Of a DNA stretch of 64,000 bases, positions 5,714-51,853 are shown piece by piece. How positions within the stretch are numbered: the stretch's first letter is position 1; every line of letters begins with the position of its first letter. The translations under genes and the position numbers were made by a program. The stretch is from an uncultured Planctomycetaceae bacterium. Its GTDB lineage: Bacteria; Planctomycetota; Planctomycetia; Gemmatales; Gemmataceae. The stretch is taken from NCBI GenBank assembly GCA_963771935.1, contig CAVYVK010000011.1:1302127-1366126 (forward strand), written 5' to 3'. The notes beneath the pieces were generated by a model, which did no database searches, was not told the origin of the DNA, and saw only the letters and a program-made list of their open reading frames with translations.

Positions 5714-5719
5714 CCCTAG

Positions 5720-5748
5720 AGACTAGAAAAACACAGACGAGCTGTCAA
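5720..5748 (-). promoter_or_regulatory. Sigma70-like promoter positioned for a leaderless methylase transcript
   Basis: On the minus strand: TTGACA (5743..5748), a 17-nt spacer, TAGTCT (5720..5725), then 6 nt to the ATG at 5713. It sits in an AT-richer stretch. Pattern match only. Confidence 0.35.
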
Positions 5749-15681: not shown

Positions 15682-17432
15682 CGCAGGAAGCGCAAGGCGC
15701 GGCGGCCGTCGCCCTCACGGTTGCCGGCGTCCGCTGGCAAACAGCGCCGGAACTGATCGATCACGGCGTTCTCGGCCCCGACGGGTTGCGGCTCTCCATT
15801 GGAACGTCCATCGTCAAGCAAGGTCCGCATTGTACGGTATATCGCGTTGCGCTTCCGGAATTGGACGTTCACGTCAAGCACTACCACCCCGCCGACGCTC
15901 GATCATGGGCCCGGTCTCTGCTGCGGGCGAGCAAGGCGCGCGCCGAGGCGGCGCGCGCGCGGGAGGCGGCCCGGCGCGGCGTACTGACCTTGGAGCCGCT
16001 GGCGGTCGGCGAGGCGTTCGCCGGCGCGGCGCGGGGGTCGTTCCTGGTGACGCGCACGGTGGAAGCGGCGCGCCCTCTGAGCGCCTTTCTGGAGGAAGAA
16101 TTGCCTCGATTCGCTCCACTGCGGCGGGCGCGTCTGCGTCAAACTCTGGCGGCCGCGCTCGGCCGACTGCTGGCCCGGATGCACGACGCGGGCGTCGTCC
16201 ACGCCGACCTCCACCCCGGCAACCTGCTCCTCCGGCTCGGGCCGGGCGACGAGCCGGACTTGTACCTCATCGACCTCTACGCCGTCCGCCTCGGGCCTCC
16301 CGTGGGTCGGCGGCGCGGCCGCGACAACCTCGTGGTGCTGAATCGCTGGTTCATCCTGCGTGCCACGCGCTCCGATCGGCTGCGGTGCTGGCGCGCGTAT
16401 CAGGAAGCCCGCGCGCTCCCCTTCGGGTCGCGGCTAAACGGGCTGGACGCGGCGCGGGAAATCGAGCGAACTACAGAGATCTCCAATATTCAGTTCTGGC
16501 GCTTGCGCGATCGGCGCTGTCTCGGCGGCAACCGCTGGTACCGCCGTGTCCGCTCTGGCGCCGCGACAGGGTATGCGGCGGCGGACATGGCCCCGGCCGT
16601 GCTGGCGCCGCTGATGGCCGACCCCGACGAGCCGTTCCTCCGGCCGGGCGCCGTCGTGCTAAAGGACTCGCCGTCGTCCACCATAATCGAGTTCGACCTG
16701 CCGGTGGACGGCGCCCCGCGCCGCGTGATTTACAAGCGCTTCGCCGTCACGCGCTGGTCGGACCCATGGGCGTCGCTGTTCCGTCCGCCGCCGGCGCTGC
16801 GCTCCTACGTCATGGGGCACGGGCTGCGCCTCCGCGGCCTGCCGACGCCGCGGCCGCTGGCGGTCTGGCACCGCCGCCGGTTCGGCCTGGCCTGCGAGGG
16901 CTATCTGCTCACCGAAAAGATCCCCGGCGCCCGCGAGCTGCCCGATCACGTCGCCTCCCTGGGGCGGCTGCCCCCCGCGGAACGCCGGGCCGTCCTGGGC
17001 GACCTGATTCGCCAGGCCGGCCGCCTCCTCGCCGTCCTCCACGACCGTCGTCTTTCCCACCGCGACCTCAAAGGCCCCAATCTTCTCGTCAACGCGGTCC
17101 CCTGCACCGTCTCCTCCCGCGGGGCCGCGGAAGGACGGCCGGCAACCGACGGTCCACCCTCCCTGCTTCAACAGATCTGGTTTATCGACCTTGTCGGCGT
17201 GCGCCGGCGGACGGTGCTGTCGCCGAGGCGGAGGGTGCGCAACCTATCCCGTCTCTACGCCAGTTTTCACGGCCGCGGTACGCTGACGCGAACCGACTTG
17301 CTGCGCTTCCTGCGCCTACCTCGGCTGGGCCTGCGCGGCTGGTCCGACTGGAAGACGTGGTGGGCGGCGGCCGCGCGGGCGTTCCAGGCCAAGGTCCGCC
17401 GCAACCGGCGCAACCGGCGGCCCCTGGGTTGA
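15678..17432 (+). CDS. Protein with two Kdo/LPS-kinase-like (protein-kinase fold) domains
   Basis: There are two catalytic-loop-like segments, VVHADLHPGNLLL...LYLIDLY and LSHRDLKGPNLLV...IWFIDLVG. The ATGA start/stop overlaps the glycosyltransferase gene. Confidence 0.65.
   Translation: MTQEAQGAAAVALTVAGVRWQTAPELIDHGVLGPDGLRLSIGTSIVKQGPHCTVYRVALPELDVHVKHYHPADARSWARSLLRASKARAEAARAREAARRGVLTLEPLAVGEAFAGAARGSFLVTRTVEAARPLSAFLEEELPRFAPLRRARLRQTLAAALGRLLARMHDAGVVHADLHPGNLLLRLGPGDEPDLYLIDLYAVRLGPPVGRRRGRDNLVVLNRWFILRATRSDRLRCWRAYQEARALPFGSRLNGLDAAREIERTTEISNIQFWRLRDRRCLGGNRWYRRVRSGAATGYAAADMAPAVLAPLMADPDEPFLRPGAVVLKDSPSSTIIEFDLPVDGAPRRVIYKRFAVTRWSDPWASLFRPPPALRSYVMGHGLRLRGLPTPRPLAVWHRRRFGLACEGYLLTEKIPGARELPDHVASLGRLPPAERRAVLGDLIRQAGRLLAVLHDRRLSHRDLKGPNLLVNAVPCTVSSRGAAEGRPATDGPPSLLQQIWFIDLVGVRRRTVLSPRRRVRNLSRLYASFHGRGTLTRTDLLRFLRLPRLGLRGWSDWKTWWAAAARAFQAKVRRNRRNRRPLG
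16413..16441. repeat. Solo half-copy (one arm) of the family-1 palindrome, inside a coding sequence
   Basis: The 29 nt GCGCTCCCCTTCGGGTCGCGGCTAAACGG are identical to 45702..45730. Here they encode ALPFGSRLNG of the kinase-like protein, and no partner arm is nearby. Confidence 0.85.
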
Positions 17433-26682: not shown

Positions 26683-26703
26683 GGCGCGGGAAAGGTTTCA
26701 CAA

Positions 26704-26762
26704 CCAGCCCCGAGCGCGAGCGAGGGGTTGGCGCCGGCCCCCTCGCTCGCGCTCGGGGCTGG
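26704..26762. repeat. Palindromic element, family 2 (24-bp stem)
   Basis: CCAGCCCCGAGCGCGAGCGAGGGG (26704..26727) pairs with CCCCTCGCTCGCGCTCGGGGCTGG (26739..26762). It lies 22 nt after the stop of the preceding gene. Confidence 0.9.
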
Positions 26763-26786
26763 TAGTAGAGAGAGGATAACTCCATC

Positions 26787-28019: not shown

Positions 28020-28042
28020 TCCCCAACACTCAGCGTAACGCT

Positions 28043-28115
<73 letters not shown>

Positions 28116-28124
28116 TTCCATGAG

Positions 28125-29538: not shown

Positions 29539-29764
29539 GAGGGGAACCTCGGTGGAGCGCGGCGCAACCAGGAGCTTTTATACGAGGGCGGTCAGGTCGT
29601 CCACCTTCCCTACCGTTCGGCCTCGTCACGACGGAAGCCGCGACCGCCTCCGAGGCCGCCGCGGTGAACCCGCGCTGCAAAGGCGGTGTCGTATTCGGCG
29701 TGTGAGGTCGGGGCTGGTCGGCCTTCGCCTCGCAGCTCAGCCGCTCCCCGGATAGAACGGATCC

Positions 29765-31177
29765 ATGCTACTCACCATTACTACCACGCACCGGCTCGCT
29801 CTCGACCTCGGCTACCTGCTGCACAAGCACCCCGGCCGACTCCAGACATTCGACCTCAGCTTCGGCAAGGCCCACGTCTTCTACCCCGAGGCGGACGACC
29901 AGCGCTGCACCGCCTGCCTGCTGCTCGACGTGGACGCGGTGGACCTGGCCCGATCCGGCGGCCGTGAGCAACGCTTCCTGGCGGGCCATTACGTCAACGA
30001 CCGCCCCTACACGGCCTCTTCCTTTTTGAGCGTGGCGATCGCCCAGGTGTTCGGCTCGGCCCTCCAGGGGCGCTGCAAGGACCGGCCCGAGCTGGCGGCG
30101 TCGGCCATCCCGCTTTCCGCCCACATCGACGTGCTGCCGGTGCGCGGCGGCGAGCGCTTCCTGCGGGCCGTCTTCGAGCCGTTGGGTTACGCGGTCGAGG
30201 CCGCCCGCCGCCCGCTGGACGAGCAGTTCCCCGAGTGGGGCGACAGCCCGTACTTCTCCGTCGCCGTCCACAAGACGGTGGCTCTGTCGGAGCTGTTGAC
30301 GCACCTCTACGTTTTGATCCCGGTGTTCGACGGTCAGAAGCACTACTACATCGGCGACGACGAGATGGAGAAACTGCTGGCCAAGGGGGAGGGATGGCTG
30401 GCCCGACATCCCGAAAAGGAGGAGATCGCCCGCCGCTTCCTGAAACACCAGCCGAGCCTCTACCGCGAGGCGCTGGCGCGGCTGGTCCAGGAGGAGGCGC
30501 CGGCCGAAACCGAAGAGGGCGACGCACCCGCCCGAGAGAGCAACGAAGATGTTGTCGAGAAGCCGATCCGCCTCAACGAGCAGCGGCTGGGAGCGGTACT
30601 GGCGACCCTGCGGTCGAGCGGCGCGAAGCGAGTTTTGGACCTCGGCTGCGGCGAGGGGAGGTTGATCCGGGAACTATTGAAGGACAGGCAGTTCGAGGAG
30701 GTGGTGGGGCTGGACGTATCCATCCGCTCGCTGGAAGCGGCGCAGAGGCGGCTGAAGCTGGACCGGCTGCCGGCCAACCAGTCGGAGCGAATCCGCCTGA
30801 TTCACGGCTCGCTCATGTACCGGGACCGGCGGCTGGAGGGCTTCGACGCGGCGGCCGTGGTCGAAGTGGTCGAGCATCTCGACCCACCCCGGCTGTCGGC
30901 CTTCGAGCGCGTGCTGTTCGAGTTCGCCAAACCCCGGACGGTCGTGCTGACGACGCCGAACCGCGAGTACAACGTGAAATGGGAGACGCTGGGAGCCGGG
31001 CGCTTCCGCCACCCCGACCACCGCTTCGAGTGGACGCGGCAGGAGTTTCGGGACTGGGCGACGGATATTGGGGAACGGTTCGGCTATGTGGTGCGGTTTT
31101 TGGGAATCGGGCCGGACGCGGAAATGTTGGGAGCGCCGACGCAGATGGCGGTTTTTGAAAGGAATCGGATGGAGTAG
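29765..31177 (+). CDS. hen1: Bacterial Hen1, RNA 3'-terminal ribose 2'-O-methyltransferase
   Basis: The N-terminus MLLTITTTHRLALDLGYLLHKHPGRLQTFDLSFGKAHVFYPE is typical of bacterial Hen1. The C-terminal SAM methyltransferase motif is RVLDLGCGEGRL. pnkp lies nearby. Confidence 0.85.
   Translation: MLLTITTTHRLALDLGYLLHKHPGRLQTFDLSFGKAHVFYPEADDQRCTACLLLDVDAVDLARSGGREQRFLAGHYVNDRPYTASSFLSVAIAQVFGSALQGRCKDRPELAASAIPLSAHIDVLPVRGGERFLRAVFEPLGYAVEAARRPLDEQFPEWGDSPYFSVAVHKTVALSELLTHLYVLIPVFDGQKHYYIGDDEMEKLLAKGEGWLARHPEKEEIARRFLKHQPSLYREALARLVQEEAPAETEEGDAPARESNEDVVEKPIRLNEQRLGAVLATLRSSGAKRVLDLGCGEGRLIRELLKDRQFEEVVGLDVSIRSLEAAQRRLKLDRLPANQSERIRLIHGSLMYRDRRLEGFDAAAVVEVVEHLDPPRLSAFERVLFEFAKPRTVVLTTPNREYNVKWETLGAGRFRHPDHRFEWTRQEFRDWATDIGERFGYVVRFLGIGPDAEMLGAPTQMAVFERNRME
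31073..31098 (+). repeat. 26-nt direct repeat, copy 1 (inside the hen1 3' end)
   Basis: GAACGGTTCGGCTATGTGGTGCGGTT is identical to 31786..31811. Confidence 0.9.
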
Positions 31178-31186
31178 AATCCTAGG

Positions 31187-31765
31187 ATGCGCTCTGAAAT
31201 GACCGCACGACAGGCTTTTCACATGCTCGAGAACGAGACGCTCTGGGAACTCGCGGAGCGCGTTCACGCCTTGCTCGCGCGAACACATTGCCCACGCCAT
31301 CGTGGGCGGCGTTGCGGTCTGTCTTCACGGCTATCGGCGGAACACCGTGGACCTCGATTTGCTCGTCCGGCCCGAAGACGCGGCCGCCCTCCGTTCCGCG
31401 CTGGAAGCCGAGGGCTTCCGATGGGCCCCGCGGAGAAAGAATTTCGCTCCGCCGACGGCGCGGCCATCCAATTCGTGCTTGCCGGCGAAAGCGAGGGACC
31501 GGGGCAGGCGGCCCTGTTTCCCAGCCCAGGCGATCGGAAGCACGTAACCACAATCGAAGGATTGCCGGTCCTATCGCTCGCCCAACTGATCCAGTCCAAG
31601 CTGGCCTGCGGCCTGGGCAACCTGCGCCGCACCCATAAGGACTTCGCCGACGTCGTCGAGCTGATCGCGTTCCACCGCCTGGACGGCTCCTTCGCGCGAT
31701 TCTTGCACAAGTCGGTTCGCAAGGAATTCCGCGAACTCGTTCGCCGCGCGGCCGGTCAGAAATAA
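31187..31765 (+). CDS. AbiEii-like/Pol-beta-fold nucleotidyltransferase, two frameshifts as assembled
   Basis: The reconstructed sequence is ...IAHAIVGGVAVCLHGYRRNTVDLDLLVRPEDAAALRSALEAEGF... (ORF 31302) flanked by the N- and C-terminal parts in ORF 31187. The G-G-x-A...R-x-T-x-D-L-D motif matches the nucleotidyltransferase fold. Confidence 0.55.
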   Translation: MRSEMTARQAFHMLENETLWELAERVHALLARTHCPRHRGRRCGLSSRLSAEHRGPRFARPARRRGRPPFRAGSRGLPMGPAEKEFRSADGAAIQFVLAGESEGPGQAALFPSPGDRKHVTTIEGLPVLSLAQLIQSKLACGLGNLRRTHKDFADVVELIAFHRLDGSFARFLHKSVRKEFRELVRRAAGQK

Positions 31766-31785
31766 GCCCCGTCGCCGTGAGCCGA

Positions 31786-31811
31786 GAACGGTTCGGCTAT
31801 GTGGTGCGGTT
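31786..31811 (+). repeat. 26-nt direct repeat, copy 2
   Basis: Identical to 31073..31098. Confidence 0.9.
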
Positions 31812-31887
31812 CGTGGCCGTCGGGCCGGAGGATGCGGGGTTGGGACCGCCGACGCAAATGGGGATCTTTGAGCACGACCAAAGGTAA
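31786..31887 (+). pseudogene. Displaced relic of an alternative hen1 3' end
   Basis: It encodes ERFGYVVRFVAVGPEDAGLGPPTQMGIFEHDQR-stop, against ERFGYVVRFLGIGPDAEMLGAPTQMAVFERNRME-stop at the real hen1 end. An in-frame stop lies just upstream. Confidence 0.75.
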
Positions 31888-31895
31888 ATGCCGAC

Positions 31896-32384
31896 ATGCC
31901 CAGCATCAAGGAATGGATGCGAATGTTTGCGAGCAACAAGCGCGAAGTCAAGCTTCGTGCCGCGAGGGCGCTTTTGCATCGCGCCGACGAAGCACCTCTG
32001 CGGCTTCTGGTCGAAATCCTTCAAAATCTATCTCAAGAAGGATTGGGTGCACAGACCGAAAAAGCGCTGCTGCAACGCCGGGATGCAGAACTCGTCCTGA
32101 AAATGATCGGTCTGCTTGAATCGCCCGATCCTTTCGTCAGGCAAGCGGCTTGCAATGTTCTTGGTCGTTTTGGAGACAGGGCAGTTACGCCACACCTCCT
32201 TCGCATGATCGACGATCCGCACCTGATGGTTCGGCGAGCGGCTGGTTTCAGCCTTGCTTTCCTGAAAGATCCATCATCGCTGCCCGAGCTAAAACGGCAG
32301 TATGAACGCCACCGTGATGACGATTCCAACGTCGTCATGGCTCTTCAGCGCGCTCTGCAAAGTCTCGGTGAAAAGGAACCATGA
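31896..32384 (+). CDS. Small HEAT/PBS-lyase-type repeat protein
   Basis: The repeats LLESPDPFVRQAACNVLGRFGDRAVTPHLLRMIDDPHLMVRRAAGFSLAFL are HEAT-like. GC is visibly lower than its neighbours. Confidence 0.6.
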   Translation: MPSIKEWMRMFASNKREVKLRAARALLHRADEAPLRLLVEILQNLSQEGLGAQTEKALLQRRDAELVLKMIGLLESPDPFVRQAACNVLGRFGDRAVTPHLLRMIDDPHLMVRRAAGFSLAFLKDPSSLPELKRQYERHRDDDSNVVMALQRALQSLGEKEP

Positions 32385-33330
32385 TGGACCGGGTGCATTA
32401 CCCTCCCGATTTGATCTTCTCCGTCGGCACGCAGGTCGTGACGCTGGTGGACATCCCCGCCCCCGCCGGCTTCATCCACCACCCGCGCGGCACGGTCGGC
32501 GTCGTCGTGAAGGCGCCGACCGACTCCGAGCATTCCTACCGGGTCCGCTTCCCCGACGGCTTCGAGGCGGCGCTCAAGCGGGGCGAGGTGACGATGCTGG
32601 CCCGGTTCAAGGAGGGCGAGATCGGCGACGGCGCCGATTCGGTCGCCTGGAACGACCTGTACGAGCGCGTCATCTATCGCTGCGTGATCGGCTCGCAGGC
32701 ATATGGCCTCGCCGACGCCGAGTCGGACGTGGACCGCCGGGGCATTTACTTGCCGCCCGCCGAGCTGCACTGGTCGCTCTACGGCGTGCCGGAGCAACTG
32801 GAGAACGACGCGACCCAGGAGGCGTACTGGGAGATTCAGAAGTTCCTCGTCCTGGCGCTCAAGGCGAACCCGAACGTCCTGGAGTGCCTCTACACGCCGC
32901 TGGTCGAGAAGGCGACGCCGCTGGCCGAGGAACTGCTGGCGATGCGGTCGATCTTCCTGTCCCGGCTGGTCTACCAGACCTACAACGGCTACGTGATGTC
33001 GCAGTTCAAGAAGATGCAGGCCGACATCCGCAACCAGGGCCAGGTCAAGTGGAAGCACGTCATGCACCTGATCCGGCTGCTGCTGTCGGGCATCGGCGTG
33101 CTTCGCGAGGGCTTCGTGCCGGTCCGGGTGGACGAGCATCGGGACCGGCTGCTGGCGATCCGGCGCGGCGAGGTGCCTTGGGAGGAGGTGGAGGACTGGC
33201 GGCTCGCCCTGCACCAGGAGTTCAACGCCGCCTTCGAGGCCACGAGGCTGCCGGAGCGCCCGACTACGAGCGCGCCAACGCCTTCCTGGTTCGCGCCCGG
33301 CGACTGGCCCTGGCGGAGGAGTTGCCGTGA
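32381..33330 (+). CDS. Pol-beta-type nucleotidyltransferase (PF10127/RlaP-like, from memory), one frameshift near 33255
   Basis: The motif is CVIGSQAYGLADAESDVDRRGIYLPP. The C-terminus ...LPERPDYERANAFLVRARRLALAEELP lies in ORF 32302..33330. An ATGA overlaps the HEAT gene stop. Confidence 0.6.
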
Positions 33331-33342
33331 TTCCGATCCCGC

Positions 33343-34085
33343 TTGCTGAAAAAGCAGGTTGAACAGCACCCGTACCCGCTGCTCTTCGCCACGATCAGCG
33401 GGGCGCACCTGTACGGCTTCCCCTCGCCGGACTCGGATTTCGACCTGCGCGGCGTCCATCTGCTGCCGCTCCAGGAGGTGGTCGGCCTCAAGACCGGCCC
33501 GGAGACCGTCGAGAAGTCGGGAATCCACGACGGCCTGGAGATCGACCTGGTGACGCACGACGCTCGGAAGTTCTTCGGCCTGCTGCTGAAGAAGAACGGC
33601 TACGTGCTGGAGCAGGTGTTCTCGCCGCTGGTCGTCCACACGACGCCGGAACACGCCGAGCTGAAGGAGATCGCCGCCGAGCTGCGTCACCCGCCACCAC
33701 GCCCACCACTACCTGGGCTTCGCGGAGACGCAGTGGAAGCTGTTCGCAGAAGGAGAACCCGCCGCGCGTCAAGCCGCTGCTGTACGTCTACCGCGTGCTG
33801 CTGACCGGCATTCACCTGATGCAGACGGGCGCGGTCGAGGCCAATCTCCTTCGCCTGAACGAGTCGGCCAGGCTGCCGTACCTCGACGACCTGATCGGCC
33901 GGAAGCTGGCCGGCGCGGAGAAGACCGTTCTCGTCGAGGTGGACCTCGACTTTCACCGGGGCGAGTACGAGCGCTTGCGCGGCGAGCTTCAGGCGGCGTC
34001 CGAGGCGAGTTCGCTGCCGGAATCTCCTCGGGCGAGTGAGGCGCTGCACGATCTGCTGGTCCGACTGCGGCTGCGTGGGCTTTGA
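33343..34085 (+). CDS. Second Pol-beta-type nucleotidyltransferase (paralogous family), at least two frameshifts
   Basis: The motif is ATISGAHLYGFPSPDSDFDLRGVHLLP. The tail ...LLTGIHLMQTGAVEANLLRLNE...HDLLVRLRLRGL lies in ORF 33795..34085. Confidence 0.55.
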
Positions 34086-34113
34086 GACCGGCGTCCTCCC
34101 TTTTCCGTGTGGA

Positions 34114-36720
34114 ATGATGATAATATCGATCCCCAAACTCAGCATTGTCGTCCTCATCGGCCCCAGCGGCGCTGGCAAGAGCACCTTCGCGCGCAAGCAC
34201 TTCCTGCCCACCGAAGTCCTGTCGTCGGACGCCTGCCGGGCGATGGTGGGAGACGACCCGAACGACCAGGCCGTCACCCACGACGCCTTCGAAGTGCTGC
34301 ACCACGTCGCCGCCAAGCGGCTGGCGCTGGGCCGGCTGACGGTGATCGACGCCACCAATGTGCAGCCCGAGGCCCGCAAGCCGCTCGTCGAACTGGCTCG
34401 GCGTTACTACTGCCTGCCGGTCGCCGTCGTGCTGAATCTGCCTGAACGGCTCTGCCAGGACCGCAACCGCCAGCGCGACGATCGCAACTTCGGTCCCCAC
34501 GTCATCCGCCAGCAGCAGTCCCAACTGCGCCGGTCGCTCCGGGCTCTCGGCCGCGAGGGCTTCCGTCACGTTTTCGTGCTGGAGACGCCGGAAGAGGTGG
34601 AAGCCGCCGTCGTCGAGCGCGTGCCCCTGTGGAACGATCGATCCGGGGAACGCGGCCCCTTTGACGTCATCGGCGACGTTCACGGCTGTTGCGACGAGCT
34701 GGAGGAGTTGCTCCGGCGGCTCGGCTACACGGCGATCAGGCTGGGGGACGCCGATCCCCTGTGGGGCGATCGCTATTTCGCCCATCCGGAGGGCCGTAAG
34801 GCCGTATTCGTCGGCGATCTGGTGGACCGCGGCCCCCGCGTCCTCGACGCCGTGCGGCTGGTGCGCAACATGGTCCACGGCGGCGCGGCCCTGTGCGTCC
34901 CCGGCAACCACGACATGAAGCTGCTGCGGAAGCTCCGGGGCAAGGACGTGCAGGTCACGCACGGCCTGGCCAACTCTCTCACGGAGATCGAGTCTCTGCC
35001 GGCCGAGGTGCGCGAGCCGTTCCGCAAGGCGCTGGCGGACTTCCTCGATGGCCTGGTGAGTCACTACGTCCTCGATGGCGGCAAACTGGTCGTGGCCCAC
35101 GCCGGGATGAAGCAGGAGATGCAGGGGCGCGGCTCCGCCAAGGTGCGCGACTTCGCGCTGTACGGCGAGACCACCGGCGAGACGGATGAGTTCGGTCTGC
35201 CGGTGCGCCAGAACTGGGCGGCCGAGTACCGGGGCCAGGCGATGGTCGTCTACGGCCACACGCCGGTCCCCGAGCCGGAGTGGCTGAACCGGACGGTCAA
35301 CATCGACACCGGCTGCGTCTTCGGCGGGAAGCTCACGGCCCTGCGTTACCCGGAGAAGGAATTCGTATCGGTGCAGGCCGCCCGCACATATTGCGAGCCG
35401 GCGCGGCCCTTCCTCCCCGACGACCGGAAGGCGCCGGCGCTCACGGCCCAGCAGGCCCACGACGCGGTCCTCGACGCCGACGACGTTCTCGGCAAGCGCA
35501 TCATCTCGACGCAGCTGCGCGGCAACGTCGTCATCAGCGAGGCGAACGCCGCCGCCGCCCTGGAAGTCATGAGCCGGTTCGCGGCCGACCCGAAATGGCT
35601 CATCTACCTGCCGCCGACCATGTCGCCGTGCGAGACGAGCGACGAGGCCGGCCTGCTGGAGCATCCCGCCGAGGCGTTCGCCTATTACCGCAGCCAGGGT
35701 GCGCCGAAGGTGGTGTGCGAAGAGAAGCACATGGGATCGCGGGCCGTGGCGGTCGTCTGCCGCGACGAGCAGGCGGCGCGGGAACGCTTCGGCGTGACCG
35801 AGGGCGACAGCGGCGTGGTCTACACCCGCACGGGCCGGCGCTTCTTCAACGAGCCGGACCTGGAGCGGCCGTTCCTGGACCGGCTCCGGGCCGCGCTGTC
35901 CGCCGCCGATTTTTGGGCCGCGTTGGAGACGACCTGGGTCTGTTTGGATTGCGAGCTGATGCCGTGGTCGGCCAAGGCTCAGGAGCTGCTGCGGAACCAG
36001 TACGCGGCGGTTGGGGCCGCCGGGCGCGCCTCGCTGCCAAAGGCCGTGGCGGCCCTGGAGCAGGCCGCCGCACGATTGGCCGGCGACGACAAGGACAAGG
36101 CCGAACGGATCGCCGACTCGTACCGCCGTCAGGAAGAGAACGTCGGCAAGTTCGTCGCGGCCTACCGGCGCTACTGCTGGCCGGTGGCGGCGCTGACCGA
36201 CCTGAAGCTGGCGCCGTTCCACCTGCTGGCCACGGAAGGGCGCGTCCATACGGACAGGGACCACGTCTGGCACATGGAAACGTTGGCCAGGGTGTGTCGG
36301 GAAGACCCGCAACTGCTGCTGGCGACGCCTCATCGGGTCGTTGACGTGACGGAACCGGCCGGCGAAGAAGCGGGGGTCCAGTGGTGGGCGGAGCTGACCG
36401 AGCGGGGCGGCGAGGGCATGGTGGTCAAGCCGCTCGCCTTCCTGCATCGGGGGAATCGGGGGCTCGCCCAGCCGGCCGTGAAGTGCCGAGGCCGCGAGTA
36501 CCTGCGCATCATCTACGGCCCCGAGTACACGACGGACGAGAACCTCGCGCGCCTGCGGAGCCGAGGTCTGGGCCGGAAGCGGTCGCTGGCGCTCGGCGAG
36601 TTCGCGCTCGGCGTCGAGGGGCTGGAGCGGTTCGTGCGGAGGGAGCCGCTGCGCCGCGTCCATGAATGCGTCTTCGGCATCCTCGCGTTGGAGAGCGAGC
36701 CGGTGGACCCGAGATTGTGA
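34114..36720 (+). CDS. pnkp: Polynucleotide kinase-phosphatase/ligase Pnkp
   Basis: Kinase P-loop VVLIGPSGAGKST; metallophosphatase motifs GDVHGCCDEL, GDLVDRGP and PGNHD; adenylyltransferase (ligase) lysine motif EEKHMGSRA. The domain order is as in bacterial Pnkp. Confidence 0.85.
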   Translation: MMIISIPKLSIVVLIGPSGAGKSTFARKHFLPTEVLSSDACRAMVGDDPNDQAVTHDAFEVLHHVAAKRLALGRLTVIDATNVQPEARKPLVELARRYYCLPVAVVLNLPERLCQDRNRQRDDRNFGPHVIRQQQSQLRRSLRALGREGFRHVFVLETPEEVEAAVVERVPLWNDRSGERGPFDVIGDVHGCCDELEELLRRLGYTAIRLGDADPLWGDRYFAHPEGRKAVFVGDLVDRGPRVLDAVRLVRNMVHGGAALCVPGNHDMKLLRKLRGKDVQVTHGLANSLTEIESLPAEVREPFRKALADFLDGLVSHYVLDGGKLVVAHAGMKQEMQGRGSAKVRDFALYGETTGETDEFGLPVRQNWAAEYRGQAMVVYGHTPVPEPEWLNRTVNIDTGCVFGGKLTALRYPEKEFVSVQAARTYCEPARPFLPDDRKAPALTAQQAHDAVLDADDVLGKRIISTQLRGNVVISEANAAAALEVMSRFAADPKWLIYLPPTMSPCETSDEAGLLEHPAEAFAYYRSQGAPKVVCEEKHMGSRAVAVVCRDEQAARERFGVTEGDSGVVYTRTGRRFFNEPDLERPFLDRLRAALSAADFWAALETTWVCLDCELMPWSAKAQELLRNQYAAVGAAGRASLPKAVAALEQAAARLAGDDKDKAERIADSYRRQEENVGKFVAAYRRYCWPVAALTDLKLAPFHLLATEGRVHTDRDHVWHMETLARVCREDPQLLLATPHRVVDVTEPAGEEAGVQWWAELTERGGEGMVVKPLAFLHRGNRGLAQPAVKCRGREYLRIIYGPEYTTDENLARLRSRGLGRKRSLALGEFALGVEGLERFVRREPLRRVHECVFGILALESEPVDPRL

Positions 36721-36813
36721 CGCGAACGTCGGCCGCCGGTTGCGATTCGCCCGGACGGCCGTTATTCTTCCCAGTAGAGTTCGCCGCCCCTTTCGCTTCC
36801 TCCGGCCCCGGTC

Positions 36814-39281
36814 ATGCCCGAAGGCGACAAGCACGATCCGCAATCGCTCACCGCTCCGGCGCCCCGGCCGAGGTGTTGCTCGTCTGCCCGGAGTGCGGCG
36901 CGCCCCTGGCCGCCGGCCTCTACGAAGCGCATCTCCGCCAGGCCCATCACCTCTATTTCTTCCGCGGCGTCCGCCGCACCTACACGGCGACCCTCGCCCA
37001 CCTGCTCAACCTCCTCGCCGAGACGCCGCCCGACGCGGACGCCTGGCGCGTGCTGGCGCTCCTCATGCGGGAGGAACACGGCGCCCGCGCCCCCACGGTC
37101 CTCGCCGCCCTGCTCGGCGCCCTGCTGACCCGTGTGGACGACGACCGGCGGGGCGCCGCCGTGGACGCGCTGGCGGTGCTGCTGGCCGACGACGACCTCC
37201 GCCTGACGACGGCGCTCGCCGCCGACGGCGAAGCCGCGGCGCGGCGGCTGGCGCTGGCCCTGGTCGCGCGGCAGACGCCGCCGTTCGATCCGGCGCTGTT
37301 GCAACCGCTGCGCGGATCTGCTGCTCGACCGCCGCCTGCCCGTCGAGGCGCAGTTCGCCGCCCTCGCCGCTCTGTTGCGCTCGGCCGGCCCGGACGGCCC
37401 GCTCGCCGCCGAATTCCTCCGCAAGCTCGTCGGCGGACTCGGCAAGGCCCGCTCCGTGAAGCGGCTGAGCGAATACGCGCGTCTCCACGGCCCCTCGCCT
37501 ACCATCGACGCCCTCTGCACGGAACTCGAAGAGCGGATGCGCATGAGCTGTCCGCGCTGCTCCGTCCAGCTGCGGCGGCCCGCGATGATACGCCACTTGT
37601 GGGACGAACATCGTCTGATTCTTGACGGCCGCCGCGTCCGCGATCCCTGGGCGGTGATCGGGGACTGGATCATCGAGCATCGCGCGACGGGCGACGCCGA
37701 GCTGCTGGAACGCTGCCGGCTGCGCGGCGTGCAGCTCGATCCCGAGGGCGGGCTGCACCGCGTCCACCGCCTGTTGCTGCGAACCGGGGCCGACGACGCC
37801 GAAGCGCGGCGCGGCCTCGTCGCCGAGGCCCGCGAGCGCCACGCCTCGCTCTGCCCGTGGTGCTTCGCCCTGGCGCCGCAGCCGCGCGAGGCGCCGCCGC
37901 TGGCGATCAACCTCCGGCCCGGCCGGCTCTCCGCCGGCGGCTACGAGATCGAGACAGGCTCCAAAGGGATATGGACTACCCTCGAAGTCCGTGCGCCGGG
38001 CCGTGCCCTGTTTCCACGGTCGTGAGGGCGCGATGGCGCCTGACGCGGCGCGGGGCGACGCTCTTCCTCGTCGGCCCTCTGGCGGCGCCGACGCTGGCTG
38101 CGGCCGTCGCCTGGACGGCGAGTGGTTTGGACATTTGTCCTCTTTCTTGTCCGCCTTCCTGACAGGGGCGGCGCTGCTGCTGCAATGGCGGGTCCGACGA
38201 CAATGGGCCGCCGGACGGCGCGCCGCCGATGCGGCTGGTGCGCCGCGCCTGGACGCACCTCGCGCCGCACCTGCACGAATCGGAATTCCGCCCGGAAGAC
38301 TCCGCATTCCTCGCCGGCCTGGCGCGGGCGCACGCCGCCCGGCGCCTTTCGGCAGCAGCGGGCGCCGCTGCTGACCGCGCTGCTTGAAGCGCACGGAGGA
38401 CGCCGTCGTCGCCGGCCTGGGGCCGCCCGGATGCCTTGCCGCCCTGCGCCGCCTCATGGTCGAGGACGCCGCCGCCGTTCGGCGCCGACCCGTGCCGCTC
38501 GTCGCCGACCAGCTCGCCCGCTGTTTCGAGGGCCGTCTGCCCTTGGTCTACGCGGAACATCTGCTGGCCGGCTGGCGCTCCCCCTGGTGGACGGCCGGCA
38601 ACCTCGTCCGGCTCCACGTGCTGCTGTGCGACCATGCCTTCGAGGCGGGCTTCGAGGTGAGCAACCTTCTCGACGCCGGACAGACGGTCCCGGCCCTCGG
38701 TGAGGTGTTGGGGACGAACGACCCGGCCGGCCTGGCGGCGCTGCGGCTCTTGTGGTCGCAGCGGCCGACGCGGCCCTGGGACCACTGCGGCGAGGCGCGC
38801 ACGGTCTTCGACTTGGCCGCGGAACCCGGCCGCGCCGACCTGCTGGGCCGGCGCCCCGATCTGCTCCTGTGGCAACGCGAGCCGCAATGGGTGATCGCGG
38901 CGGAGGGCGGCGACGAGCCGATGCGCGAGGTCGAGATCATGCTCTGCACCGGCGGGGTCTGGTTGCAGGAAGTGCGGTTCACTGCGCCCGCCGGCGACGA
39001 TTGAGGAGACGTACCGGGCGTTCGGCGGTTCGCTGGTGCTGGGCGAGCATCGCTTCCGCGGGGCGGCCGAGATCGACGCGCTGGCCCGGCGCATGGAACG
39101 GTGGTTCCGCTTCGCGTTTGCGGACTTCCTGCCGCGGACGGCCGACGTGCGGACGTGGCGGTCGCCGGAACGGGCGGCCATCCTGCGAGCGTGGGGCGCG
39201 GCCGCGTGCCCGGAATGCGGCTACTACCATCTCGCGCGGGTCGGCGCGGTCGGCGTCGCCCTGGACGAGGCGGCCCAATGA
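36814..39281 (+). CDS. Large hypothetical protein with C2H2-like zinc-finger motifs, at least six frameshifts as assembled
   Basis: CPECGAPLAAGLYEAHLRQAH and CPRCSVQLRRPAMIRHLWDEH share the spacing CxxC-x11-H-x4-H. CPWC and CPECGYYH are also present. A hydrophobic segment lies near 38040..38190. The protein is traceable through ORFs 36814, 36666, 37375, 37857, 37991, 38384 and 39036. Confidence 0.45.
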
Positions 39282-39282
39282 A

Positions 39283-39341
39283 CCAGCCCCGAGCGCGAGC
39301 GAGGGGTTCGGTCGAACCCCCTCGCTCGCGCTCGGGGCTGG
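39283..39341. repeat. Palindromic element, family 2 (28-bp stem)
   Basis: CCAGCCCCGAGCGCGAGCGAGGGGTTCG (39283..39310) pairs with CGAACCCCTCGCTCGCGCTCGGGGCTGG (39314..39341). It lies between convergent genes. Confidence 0.9.
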
Positions 39342-39358
39342 TAGGGAAGATAATACTA

Positions 39359-40075
39359 CTACACCCTTAACAGAGCGTCAATATCTCCTCCAGGCCGGAC
39401 GTCCACCGGCTCGCGGCCCTTGCGGAGCACCCGCGCCGGGGCGCCGATCAGCTCGGCGCCGCCCGGCTCGATGCGCAGGACGCCGCCCTCCCACAAGCCG
39501 ATCACCGGCGTGTCGTTCATCTCGTGGAACTCGCGGATGCGCTCGTCGCGCGTCTCGCCGAAGTGTGGCACGTAGGTCTCGCCGCTGCGGAGGAAGAATT
39601 GCCCCTCGTAATAGTGCGCATTGACCTGGAACGGAACCAATCCCAGGGCGGTGAAGCTCGGCGGCTGCACGATCGGCATGTCGTTGGTGGTCTTCAGGGT
39701 CGGGCAGGCCACGTTGCAGCCGGCGCTGATTCCCAGATACGGTGCGCCGTCCCGCACGCGCTCGCGGATCGGCTCCAGCAGGCCATGCCGGTACAGCGCG
39801 TCCAGCAGCCGGAACGTGTTGCCGCCGCCGACGTACAGCCCCTCCGCCCGGCGAACCGCGTCGGCGAGGTCGGGGTGGTTGTGAATCGGGTCCAGCTCGT
39901 AGCCGGCATGGAGGCCGCGCTCGACCAGGGCCGGCGCATAGCCGTCGAGGTTTCCCGCGGCGTACGGCACGAACAGCAGCCGCCGGATCGACCCGAAAAA
40001 CGACCGCATTTGGTGCGTGATAACGCCGACCCGCTCCGGCGTCCGAAATCCGCCGCTTCCCAGCAGCACGCGCAT
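39359..40075 (-). CDS. pepE: Dipeptidase E (peptidase S51)
   Basis: MRVLLGSGGFRTPERV...LYVGGGNTFRLLDALYRHGL...YLGISAGCNVACPT shows the S51 Ser nucleophile context. Confidence 0.8.
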   Translation of the reverse strand: MRVLLGSGGFRTPERVGVITHQMRSFFGSIRRLLFVPYAAGNLDGYAPALVERGLHAGYELDPIHNHPDLADAVRRAEGLYVGGGNTFRLLDALYRHGLLEPIRERVRDGAPYLGISAGCNVACPTLKTTNDMPIVQPPSFTALGLVPFQVNAHYYEGQFFLRSGETYVPHFGETRDERIREFHEMNDTPVIGLWEGGVLRIEPGGAELIGAPARVLRKGREPVDVRPGGDIDALLRV

Positions 40076-40089
40076 CGCCGACTCTCCTT

Positions 40090-43000
40090 TCAGTCGCCCA
40101 CCCGCGCCCCGACCGTCGCCAGCTCGTTGAACCGATCGACCGATTCGCCCGCCGACCACGCGATGCCGCGCAGCAGTAAAATGCGGTACAGCGGATCGTC
40201 GAAGGTCCAGGTGAAATGGCCCGGAATGCTGACGAAGACGCGGCCCTTGCCCTGCTCGCGCGTCCAGAACAGCGGCTGGGGCTTGCCCTCCTCGACGCCG
40301 GTCGCCAGCACGTCCACCTTGGCCGGGTCGCCCGTCAGGTTCCAGTAGCTCTCGTCGTCGAGTTCCAGTTTGTCGAAGTTACGGGCGATCGGGTGCTTCG
40401 AGCCGCCGAAATCCAACATCTGCGTGCCATGGCGGTACTTCGCCCCCTTGCCCCACGCCAGGCCGATCCGGACGGCGTACTCCTCCGGCGCCTCGCCGCC
40501 GTTCACGCCCCAATGGATCAGAACCAGCCCGCCGCCGCGCTCGAGAAAGGCGTCGAGTGTCCTTGGCCTTGTCGGCCTTCCAGCCGGGGTTGCTGGAGTA
40601 CATCACGACCACGTCCGCCTTCTGCCACTGCTCGGCGGTCGGCCAGCCCTCGGCCGTCTCCACCGTCACGCCGTCGGCCAGCGCCAGCAGCGTCTTCCAG
40701 CGCTTCTGCCACAAAGGATAGTCGTGTTCTCCCGGCCCGTGGTCTTTCGAACCGGCCGACAGGACGATGCGCAGCTTGCGGGCGTCGGCCGCGGGCGGCG
40801 CTGCCCTTCAACGCCGCCTCCACTTCGGCCATCTTGCGCGGCGGCGGCGGCCCGTCGCGCTCCAGCTTGGCCGGCTGCAACGGCTCCGTCAGCAGGAACG
40901 TGAGCAGGTCGCGCATCCGCTCCGGCCCCACGGTTTTTTCCAGCCCTTCGGGCATGATCGACAGGGCGGACGGATGCAGCGCCTCCACGTCGGAGCGGCG
41001 GATGCGATATTCCCGCCCTTGCGTGTCGCCTATTATCAGATCGTCGCCCTCGGTGCGCGGCACGCCGGTCAAAACGCGGCCGTCCTTCATCTCGACGAGG
41101 CAAGTGAGATAATCGGGATGGATCGTGGCGCTTGGAAGGCGGATGTCGCGCCGGACGGACTCGTAATCGCGGTGGATCAGGTTCGACAGGTCGGGGCCGA
41201 TGCGGCCGCCGCGGCCGTGGACCTGATGGCACTTCGCGCACTGGGCCTGGTCGCTGAAGAAGACCGAGCGGCCGCGCGCCCAGTCGCCGCCCTTCAGCTC
41301 GGGGATTTCCCGGTCGGCGTCCAGCGCGGCGTCGGCCGGCCGCGTCAGGGCCGCCCAGGGCAGGAGCAGCCGATGCAGCGGCAGCGCCCGCGGCCGGTCG
41401 TCCTCATTCGTCGAATAAGCGACGTGGAGGTCCGCATCCTCGCCGGTTTGCAGCGAGATTTCCAGCGGGTATCGGCTCGTCCTTCTTCGGCCGCATTTTC
41501 AGGGTGATCCGTGGCTTAAACTTGACCGAGCCAACGATACCGACGGAGGCAAGCTTCCTGACGTCCGGCGGCGTCGTTATTTCCAGACGGCGGGCAGGAC
41601 TGAAGTTTAGCTCTACTTCCTCATCGGGCAGCGTGTAATCGAGTGTCGATCCCGGCTGCACCGCCGGGCGCAGCATTTGCCACAGGTCGAGCTTGGTGCG
41701 CAACGTCAGCGTCCCCGGTTGCTTCATCAATTCCCACAGCCGATCGTGTTCCGCGCTGCCGGCGGTGAACGCGCGGGCGACCGATAGATCGAGATGAGGC
41801 AGCCAACCGTCCCAGGTTCCGCCGCCGGACTTCGCGCGCCACGACGCTTCCACGCCGGACAAATCGTATCCGACATCGACGGCGGCGACCTGCGGCAGCT
41901 CGCCGGCGCCGGGCTTGTCGGGCCGGCCGAAGCCCTCCAGCGTCAGCGCGTAATCGACCGCTTCCGGCTGGGCGTCGGTGGTCAGGATGAGCGTGCGCCG
42001 GTCGCCGCTGACCTCCGCCGAGCGCACGGCCAGGCCGTAGCGCGGCGTCGCCAGCTGGCGCCGCACCGCTTCATAGCCGGGCCGCTTTTGCTCGAAGCGG
42101 TCGCCGGGCCGGACGTACTTGCCGTACTCGATGCTCGCCCGGCTCGCCAGGTCCTTCAGCTGGGCCGGTGCGAGAGGGGCGTCGAAGGCGACGCGCACTT
42201 CATGCGGCCCGGCCGCCCACGCCGTCACCGGCTGCGGCGTCCCTTTACCGACATAGGCGATCTTGTAGAGCTTGCCGTGACCGGCCGGCCCGGTCCCCCA
42301 GTCCGGCTCGCCGCTGTGGCAGTCCACGACCAAGTCGCCGGCCGGCGACACGCAGCAATCCAGCGTCAACATACCCAAGCACGCCAACAGGTCGGTGCGG
42401 CCGACGTAGCCGGCCGGCGTACGGACCAGCTTGGTGCGGAACAACTTGCCGCGCGAATAGCCGGCGATGAGGGCGTCGCCGGCCCACCACGACGGCCCGA
42501 AGATCGGTCCCTTGTTGACCGACTCGTCGAAGACCAGGCCGCAGGTGGATTGGTGCTGCGGGCCGTAGTCGAAGACGCTCGGCTCGTCGATGACATTGGG
42601 GAGGTGTTTTGGGTGCCGCGGCGGGAAGCCGTAGTGGCGGCCCGGCTGGATGTGCAGCAGCTCGTCGAACGGGTTGCCGTTGGCCAGCCACGTCGCCCCC
42701 TCCTGGTCGGTGGCGAAAAGGTCGCCGTCGCGGTTGAACGCCAAGGCGACGGTGAAGCGGACGCCGGTGCAGACGATCTCGCGTTTCGAGAAGTCGGGCG
42801 ACACCTTGAGGATCGTGCCGCGTTCGCTCTTGAGGTCGTAGTGAGCCTGCCCCGCTTTGTCGATCAGGTAGGGGTTGGTGTAGTCGGCGGTCCCCAGGCC
42901 GAAATAGAGATTGCCGTCTTTGTCGAGGGCGACGCCGAGGGCGTCCACGTTCTGCGGGATCTCCTTCCAGCCCGTGGCGACGACGATCTCCTTGTCGGCC

Positions 43001-51723: not shown

Positions 51724-51746
51724 ATTTCGACGGAGCAAAGTAGCTT

Positions 51747-51814
51747 CCCAACCAGCCCCGAGCGCGAGCGAGGGGGAGGCGCCTCCCCCTCGCTCGCGCT
51801 CGGGGCTGGTTGGG
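51747..51814. repeat. Palindromic element, family 2, loop-less perfect 68-bp palindrome
   Basis: CCCAACCAGCCCCGAGCGCGAGCGAGGGGGAGGC (51747..51780) is directly followed by its reverse complement (51781..51814). Confidence 0.9.
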
Positions 51815-51853
51815 AAACCCTTTGACAATGGGAATCACGGTTGTGAATGAGTC

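Follow-up and report, generated by a model that had tools for sequence, protein, structure and literature searches.

A duplicated hen1 terminus in a planctomycete RNA-repair operon: a probable scar of recombination between operon variants

Introduction

A gene that seems to end twice raises the question of what came between its two ends, and from where. In a stretch of 64,000 nucleotides from an uncultured Planctomycetaceae bacterium (contig CAVYVK010000011.1, positions 1,302,127 to 1,366,126), hereafter called the window, the 3′ end of hen1 is followed by a second, diverged copy of itself, and each copy opens with the same 26 nucleotides. The original prediction, made from the letters of the window, took this for the mark of an element that had entered the 3′ end of hen1 at the 26-nt core, brought a substitute terminus and pushed the original one downstream. 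The feature is real and an insertion has taken place, but the limits of the insertion, the origin of the termini and the meaning of the 26-mer differ from that reading. It is somewhat more likely than not that the repeat is the scar of a joint between variants of a modular Hen1-Pnkp operon, made by homology-anchored and illegitimate recombination.

The duplicated end and its empty site

The locus is a Hen1-Pnkp RNA-repair operon with the order hen1, nucleotidyltransferase (NTase) gene, hen1 tail fragment, HEAT-repeat gene, rlaP1, rlaP2 and pnkp. The features first needed are the following.

29765..31177, + strand: hen1 (3′-terminal RNA ribose 2′-O-methyltransferase), 470 aa, intact, with a mosaic 3′ end
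31073..31158, + strand: repeat copy 1, 86 nt, with the exact 26-mer at 31073-31098
31187..31765, + strand: Pol-beta-superfamily NTase gene, apparently inactivated, reading as frameshifted
31786..31887, + strand: repeat copy 2, a 33-codon hen1 tail fragment and stop, with the exact 26-mer at 31786-31811

The 26-mer GAACGGTTCGGCTATGTGGTGCGGTT occurs at exactly these two sites of the window, both on the + strand. No occurrence is expected by chance (100 shuffles), and there is no third copy in the 64 kb even when 3 mismatches are allowed. From the 26-mer on, the hen1 3′ end is repeated directly over 86 nt, with 80% identity and a spacing of 713, so the duplicated terminus with its 26-nt core was correctly described. 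The translation of copy 2, ERFGYVVRFVAVGPEDAGLGPPTQMGIFEHDQR followed by a stop, lies in register with the Hen1 C-terminus, ERFGYVVRFLGIGPDAEMLGAPTQMAVFERNRME followed by a stop, and matches a hidden Markov model (HMM) of hen1 tails with an E of 3.9e-11. In its own frame copy 2 lies within no open reading frame (ORF) of at least 40 aa among those listed. The only gene between the two copies is the NTase gene (31187-31765). The earlier statement that no integrase lies between the repeats also holds: no recombinase ORF is found between or beside them, the ORFs from 28.1 to 36.7 kb being DinB, GNAT, Hen1, NTase, HEAT, two RlaP and Pnkp.

The closest Hen1 in a protein search, P0121, is 96% identical in amino acids and is encoded on a 329-kb contig, L154. 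The order there is GNAT (on the - strand), hen1, rlaP1, rlaP2 and pnkp. The hen1 gene overlaps rlaP1, and the NTase gene, the HEAT gene and the second hen1 tail are all absent from the hen1-rlaP1 site. In a blastn alignment the window is 95.8% identical to L154 over 29644-31159, without gaps, and 95.3% identical over 32387-40118. Between these two matches lies one block.

31160..32386, + strand: block missing in L154, 1,227 nt in the window against 7 nt in L154

The block contains the last few hen1 codons, the NTase gene, the hen1 tail fragment and the low-GC HEAT gene. The predicted insertion is thereby borne out by an empty site, although its size is 1,227 bp instead of 713 bp and it takes in the second tail and the HEAT gene. 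In the same alignment the NTase segment is absent from L154, as the insertion reading had it, while the resident hen1 terminus is found mostly in copy 1. Since the hen1-rlaP1 overlap is common to L154 and several other Planctomycete genomes (L024, L025, L034 and L038), it is likely the ancestral arrangement.

Mosaic origin of the inserted segments

Up to 31063, hen1 is resident DNA by its alignment with L154. Beyond this position the sequence falls into segments of different origin.

31064..31089, + strand: derived patch in hen1, 11 mismatches to L154 in 26 nt, with identical flanks
31090..31131, + strand: resident lineage-specific part of hen1, 100% identical to L154, encoding ..VRFLGIGPDAEMLG
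31132..31186, + strand: hen1 end of cassette type, APTQMAVFERNRME and stop, the same type being found upstream of the NTase elsewhere
31766..31785, + strand: junction of the NTase stop with copy 2, where GCCCCGTCGCCG is common to the 3′ flank of the L081 cassette
31896..32384, + strand: HEAT-repeat gene, 162 aa, Pfam HEAT_2, compositionally foreign, overlapping the start of rlaP1

The patch at 31064-31089 has a probability of ~5e-10 per 26-nt window, or ~8e-7 after correction for the number of windows, and from 31073 on it is the same as copy 2. Since L154 resembles the outgroup L001 in this interval, it is the window that holds the derived state. The following segment, 31090-31131, encodes the lineage-specific FLGIGPDAEMLG, for which the next best of 39 hen1 tails reaches 70%. 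Mismatches to L154 then begin at 31132, and all similarity is over after 31159. From 31132 the sequence is of the type APTQM.VFERN.. with its stop. The left joint is placed within 31132-31159, in or just past the conserved block CCGACGCAGATGG (31137-31149), which hardly varies among the aligned hen1 ends; no other well-conserved stretch follows it before the stop. The hen1 stop TAG (31175-31177) opens the hexamer TAGAAT (31175-31180), and a 6-nt spacer separates this from the ATG of the NTase. The same arrangement, a ..VF(E/Q)RN.. end with its stop and TAGAAT-N6-ATG, precedes the NTase in L081, L146, L151 and L152. The in-frame hen1 terminus is thus mostly resident, only about its last 15 codons having come with the NTase. 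The earlier claim of a substitute terminus survives in part: the NTase does travel with a piece of hen1 end, which covers only ~31132-31177, and the rest of the terminus is resident.

Copy 2 has another origin. Over 81 nt its identity to L154 is 76.5%, where that of the flanks is 95-96%, and its best match in hand, 84.5%, is to L001, which belongs to another Gemmataceae lineage; its positions 27-86 reach 82% at best. In the middle segment the two repeat copies are 64% identical, while the genomes of the window and L154 differ by ~4-5%. Because copy 2 is so far from L154 in comparison with the flanks of the block, and because the lineage-specific segment lies in copy 1, copy 2 is a hen1 fragment from another lineage. 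The view that it is the original terminus displaced downstream does not agree with these identities. The opposite polarity, with copy 2 ancestral and copy 1 foreign, was first drawn from L001, a GTDB representative (Hen1 86% identical) whose tail is 93% identical in amino acids to copy 2 and 61% to copy 1; it was overturned by the much closer L154.

The 26-mer itself is peculiar to this locus. Among 84 other hen1 ends compared (77 + 7), none comes within 3 mismatches of it, so that two independent lineages would not share it by chance. It overlaps the mismatch patch at 31064-31089, and the starts of downstream hen1 tails vary among contigs. On these grounds the 26-mer is best regarded as a short copied or converted patch rather than a conserved att core, and its proposed role as an integration core is not upheld. 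No inverted repeat of at least 14 nt lies next to 31766-31785 or the NTase 3′ end, so there is no attC-like palindrome. The junction 31766-31785, which also holds TGAGCCGA, offers no homology at this internal joint. The right joint coincides with the first bases of rlaP1, and resident DNA resumes at 32387. A 9-nt block, GGTGCGGTT, is common to all hen1 tails that were aligned with the window terminus. The HEAT gene begins 8 nt past copy 2 and is set off by sharp edges of composition, its GC content being 0.546 and that of the window 0.665. A homologue of similar GC belongs to a 57%-GC genome and is part of a Thg1-HEAT-RlaP-RlaP operon there. The nearest HEAT homologues include P0241 (80%), P0242 (75%) and P0249, the last encoded on a 271-kb contig on which Hen1 P0212 may also lie.

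Two other derivations were rejected. Duplication of a resident 26-mer by template switching is out in its simple form, as the rest of copy 2 is non-resident. If a circle had entered by a Campbell-type crossover, extra events would be needed to yield the observed combination of segments, whether the crossover fell within the 26-mer or within the conserved block.

A modular operon with recurrent hen1 fragments

The surroundings of hen1 and pnkp were surveyed in 80 genomes with related hen1, mostly Planctomycetes and Acidobacteriota. In these genomes hen1 precedes pnkp, with a gap of 0-5.7 kb and variable content, and in none of the 80 loci does an NTase or HEAT gene adjoin hen1. Across genomes the gap holds RlaP, DUF4291, NTase, HEAT, Thg1/kinase or nothing. 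Judged by gene order, the Planctomycete Hen1-Pnkp operon is modular and often rearranged, with hen1 and pnkp as its conserved anchors. The informative contexts are listed below.

L146 (NTase 87% identical): ..RVE and stop with TAGAAT before the NTase; 4 nt past stop, 49 hen1 codons running into rlaP1
L135: hen1, NTase, hen1 tail fragment of ~25-32 codons, rlaP1
L151, L152, L081: hen1 (or a 40-codon hen1 relic), NTase, short decayed hen1-like remnant, DUF4291
L084, L085: only the last ~15 hen1 codons left upstream of the NTase
L148: intact hen1, NTase, 479 aa, RlaP, RlaP, 94 aa, pnkp; no second tail
L082, L147, L153: NTase after an efflux gene
L001: hen1, DUF4291, pnkp, without NTase
L155, 2976-8179: hen1 (two ORFs), 137 aa, AAA_33 kinase, Thg1-like, HEAT, RlaP, RlaP

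Fragments of hen1 therefore recur beside the NTase. A scan of 78 NTase-less hen1 loci with the tail HMM gave no genuine second hen1 tail; the single extra match, in L067, was judged spurious, as it lies in the pnkp region and its translation is unlike a hen1 tail. The left boundaries of the downstream tails vary, with 49 codons in L146, 33 in the window and ~25-32 in L135, which argues against a fixed att core. Upstream of the NTase, the hen1 remnants of L084, L085 and L081 begin at ..G.PTQM. The remnants downstream of the NTase in L151, L152 and L081 fall below detection by the tail HMM and can be read as hen1 fragments of either PTQMGVF type or HRFEW type; the former is tentatively favoured by a 13-nt exact match in L151.

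Three of these contexts show further rearrangement. At 285-407 of L081 a 40-codon "mini-hen1", its first 24 codons fused in frame to the last 16, stands upstream of an intact NTase gene; here hen1 has been deleted, with the NTase and its upstream hen1 end retained. In L085 the repair operon has decayed around a surviving NTase, which keeps the hen1 tail relic upstream, and a relic of the first ~54 pnkp codons (5569-5727) lies 1 kb downstream of the intact NTase gene. L155 ties a 3′-5′ polymerase homologue and a HEAT protein to Hen1/RlaP repair genes.

Why should a piece of hen1 accompany the NTase? In every NTase gene of at least 82% identity, the motif TA[GCT][AG]AT stands exactly 6 nt before the ATG, regardless of the upstream context. 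In the hen1-linked copies this -10-like box overlaps the hen1 stop (31175-31180 in the window). Many distant NTase homologues have a TATAAT-type box ~20 nt upstream together with a Shine-Dalgarno sequence. A generic consensus scan found no full sigma-70 promoter in 30.9-32.5 kb. Comparison among the homologues thus points to a putative -10 box belonging to the NTase itself, and its spacing suggests a leaderless transcript. A -10 box overlapping the hen1 stop would explain why the last hen1 codons travel with the NTase. At 31134-31159 of the window, and in no other genome, the conserved hen1 block reads CGCCGACGCAGATGGCG and then GTTTTTGAAA; a simple scan rates this stretch as a weak hairpin of terminator type, immediately ahead of the -10 box of the NTase.

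Proposed recombination history and its alternatives

The order of events and the mechanism that we infer are as follows. In comparison with L154, this genome would have gained a 1.2-kb block built of two foreign pieces. The first would be a self-contained NTase module with the last ~15 hen1 codons, which joined the resident hen1 in or beside CCGACGCAGATGG; joining at this block would have kept the reading frame and replaced the extreme hen1 terminus alone. The second would be the lower-GC HEAT gene, still attached to 33 terminal codons of the hen1, from another lineage, that it once adjoined. The left end of the HEAT piece would have been joined to the NTase flank by a non-homologous joint, and its right end would have been joined at the first bases of rlaP1. 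The 26-nt identity would have arisen when one hen1 tail was copied into the other over a short distance; gene conversion could have done this, or templated synthesis at the joint, perhaps primed on the 9-nt block GGTGCGGTT. A recombinase or integrase would not be needed for this history.

Several observations weigh against recombination between operon variants as just described. The donor genomes have not been found, and the native order "hen1 tail-HEAT" is itself deduced; in the sole HEAT context that was read, L155, the gene upstream of HEAT is Thg1 and not hen1. The patch reaches 9 nt further upstream than copy 2 does at its present left end, and simple conversion from copy 2 in its current form cannot explain all of it. 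Both outer crossovers fall at the very edges of homology, and no donor-type SNP tract runs into rlaP1, which one would not quite expect of RecA-type exchange. That hen1 fragments recur specifically beside the NTase could reflect an active targeting process instead. Finally, several histories fit the mosaic, such as entry of HEAT before the NTase or transfer of a ready composite block.

Of the alternatives, the one that survives best, though we consider it rather unlikely, is that the NTase module is a selfish cassette guided by homology. It would leave as a small circle through recombination of the flanking hen1 sequences and re-enter any hen1 by one host-mediated, Campbell-type crossover in the conserved terminus, so that each entry would put a hen1 tail on either side of it. 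Such a cassette would account for the hen1-derived sequence on both sides of the NTase in the window, L135, L151, L152, L081 and possibly L146, and for a left boundary at the conserved block in several contexts. The putative -10 box of its own would allow expression wherever the module lands. Its distribution is patchy, the closest hen1 relatives being without NTase, and in L082, where the NTase stands beside an efflux gene, CCGACGCAT still follows its stop. However, a Campbell product predicts a resident piece followed by rlaP1, and here a foreign piece is followed by HEAT. In L148 and L086, hen1-NTase occurs with no downstream tail, the short, decayed remnants of L151, L152 and L081 escape the tail HMM, and the loci examined amount to a handful.

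The site-specific reading comes next and is improbable. Here a 713-bp non-autonomous cassette, made up of the NTase and a replacement hen1 end, would have integrated at a 26-bp att core with the aid of a recombinase encoded elsewhere, displacing the original terminus downstream. An exact 26-nt direct repeat bounds the NTase, a close relative has the empty site, hen1 remains in frame, and the NTase carries a hen1 end in many contexts, with a hen1 tail following again in L146 and L135. All of this is as such an element would have it. Yet copy 2 has 76.5% identity to L154 against 95% in the flanks, and the resident segment lies in copy 1. The empty site defines an insert of 1,227 bp that includes HEAT. 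The 26-mer is unique to the locus, the conversion-like patch extends 9 nt past the repeat, and the left boundaries of the downstream tails vary between L146, the window and L135. Neither inverted repeats nor a recombinase are present at the locus.

Very improbable is an artefact of assembly or polishing, either a chimera of NTase and HEAT strain variants or a homogenisation of 26 nt during polishing. The contig does differ from L154 by ~22 single-base indels in 7.7 kb, with rlaP2 and an EH_Signature gene broken, which suggests an imperfect consensus. A chimeric switch at a shared k-mer, however, would not duplicate that k-mer; the order NTase, hen1 tail, downstream gene is found independently in L146 and L135, from other samples; and since the copies are only 80% identical overall, mis-mapping of reads is unlikely. 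That the hen1 3′ end was duplicated in tandem on the spot and the copies then diverged would fit a direct repeat whose two members agree in orientation and frame register, but this is hardly credible, as the repeat is absent from the 96%-identical L154, the middle segment is 64% identical while the genomes differ by ~4-5%, each copy has a different nearest relative, and foreign genes lie between and after the copies.

The NTase gene

Aligned as DNA with intact homologues, the NTase gene has two deletions: 2 nt are missing from a CG run at 31275/31276, and 1 nt is missing at 31424/31425. They shift the catalytic GG..DLD segment out of frame, and a 192-codon NTase ORF remains open. When repaired in silico, the protein has 193 aa and is 87% identical to intact metagenomic proteins of a family with >1,500 detectable members. 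The frameshifts may be consensus or assembly errors, since the contig has many 1-nt indels against L154 elsewhere.

The AF2 model of the NTase has a pLDDT of 89, and the G-G...D-x-D motif is conserved. The top Foldseek matches of the model are MenT1, ANT(2'')-Ia, LnuA, JHP933 and TM1012, at a TM of ~0.5-0.6. MenT1 (8an4/8an5) matches at an E of ~1e-5 and a TM of 0.58-0.63, with ANT(2'')-Ia, LnuA and TM1012 nearly equal. In sequence searches the support is thinner. PF08843 is not reached above its gathering score, the best being 21.4 against 22.5 bits for the homologue P0013, and the reconstructed window protein has no match; the PADLOC AbiEii model gives an E of 0.04, and Pfam matches are marginal. 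NCBIfam holds no model for the NTase, a PDB sequence search gave weak matches only, and a scan of a viral contig collection with an NTase profile gave no relative. The contexts read contain no conserved small, antitoxin-like partner gene beside the NTase. The earlier label of a frameshifted, AbiEii-like NTase is consequently moderately acceptable as a description of the predicted fold, and the deletions are seen; it does not extend to sequence families, where Pfam stays below threshold, and the frameshifts may be noise.

Comparison with known systems

In minimal mobile elements, described in Neisseria, cassettes are exchanged between conserved flanking genes. The present locus is similar in that hen1 and pnkp serve as anchors with alternative whole-gene cassettes between them, by which related genomes differ, and in that exchange would proceed by host recombination in the flanks without an element-encoded recombinase. 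It is unlike them in that one joint lies inside the last codons of an anchor gene, the replacement gene end of the cassette would double as a promoter region, and at least one joint is non-homologous, with a stray foreign hen1 fragment left behind. Homology-facilitated illegitimate recombination, known from natural transformation, combines one homologous anchor with one illegitimate joint. One-sided homology of this kind is found here in the hen1 block or the rlaP1 start, together with a junction at 31766-31785 that is without homology. The 26-nt identical tract at the joint is non-standard for that process, and the mechanism here is read from sequence.

Islands and cis-mobilisable elements that target the 3′ ends of tRNA or protein genes resemble this locus in that an insertion at a gene end supplies a substitute terminus, the terminus occurs again downstream, and a relative has the empty site. 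Here, in contrast, there is no integrase and no conserved att core, the boundaries vary, and what lies downstream is a terminus foreign to the host. An integron gene cassette would carry an attC imperfect palindrome, and none was found at the NTase 3′ end.

The toxins MenT and AbiEii and the enzymes ANT(2'')-Ia and LnuA share with the NTase a predicted fold and the G-G...D-x-D motif. They differ from it in that the NTase has sequence similarity at or below Pfam thresholds, no antitoxin-like partner was seen in its contexts, and its neighbours are the Hen1/RlaP/Pnkp RNA-repair genes. With bacterial Pnkp-Hen1 RNA repair the locus shares a Hen1 and a Pnkp of equivalog level and has in addition two RlaP genes. 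It departs from that system in having hen1 first, pnkp last and a variable middle, with an extra NTase family and a HEAT protein, and several members look broken.

The locus probably adds a case to those known of cassette exchange and of scars left by recombination. For annotation, it demonstrates that an integrative element should not be called from a gene end that is duplicated and bears a short exact repeat, as these are insufficient; a 96%-identical relative reveals a mosaic of three sources instead. It also brings to notice an uncharacterised MenT/ANT(2'')-like NTase family (>1,500 members) that is physically tied to hen1, RlaP and pnkp. If the NTase modifies RNA 3′ ends, it becomes a candidate new player, or antagonist, in the repair of ribotoxin damage. 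A bolder and doubtful extension is that the ~0.65-kb NTase module, one gene with its promoter in the last hen1 codons, is a selfish cassette that has no recombinase and specifically parasitises the conserved end of hen1 across Planctomycetes, using this end as landing pad and promoter and leaving a displaced hen1 tail at each insertion, and that the MenT-like enzyme may act on the RNA 3′ ends that Hen1 protects.

Flanking genes and minor observations

The assignment of the operon rests on full-length, equivalog-level matches. Hen1 scores 702 bits against TIGR04074 (cut-off 340) over residues 2-466, and Pfam recognises Hen1_L and a methyltransferase domain; Pnkp scores 1409.6 bits against TIGR04075 (cut-off 750) over its full length. 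The remaining genes of the operon are given below.

32381..33349, + strand: rlaP1 (RNA-ligase-associated Pol-beta nucleotidyltransferase), PF10127, E 3.9e-44
33343..34085, + strand: rlaP2, in two frames, with 1-nt insertions at 33680 and 33748 against L154
34114..36720, + strand: pnkp (kinase-phosphatase-ligase), anchoring the operon at its 3′ end, Pfam PNKP_ligase, AAA_33 and Metallophos

RlaP enzymes add 1-2 NMP to damaged RNA 3′ ends (PMC12776372). The C-terminus of RlaP1 is changed against L154 by a compensating -1/+1 pair (33259, 33341). Downstream, at 36660-39300, the orthologue of an intact 662-aa EH_Signature gene of L154 and the next gene are broken into at least 6 ORF pieces by ~13 single-base indels, mostly extra bases in the window, which may represent a decayed gene or assembly indel noise. 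The reference relative has frame problems too: a CG dinucleotide is missing from L154 at 11255 (window 34192) near the 5′ end of pnkp, which is called there at 825 aa against ~868.

The Rfam scan returned only a tRNA-Ala. A tRNA-Ala(CGC) lies at 28042-28116, upstream of the DinB and GNAT genes. On the matching side of GNAT, positions 1-6324 of L154 carry phage genes (Mu F-like, a portal fused to peptidase/ADP-ribosyltransferase domains, and a terminase), and the window and L154 thus differ also by an island beside GNAT. A near-perfect palindrome of ~60 nt, CCAGCCCCGAGCGCGAGCGAGGGG...CCCCTCGCTCGCGCTCGGGGCTGG, is dispersed over the window at 26702-26765, ~39282-39342 and ~51741-51816 and is found in L154 at 16281-16345. 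It matches in both orientations, lies just past gene ends, and resembles a REP-like or terminator-like family of intergenic hairpins.

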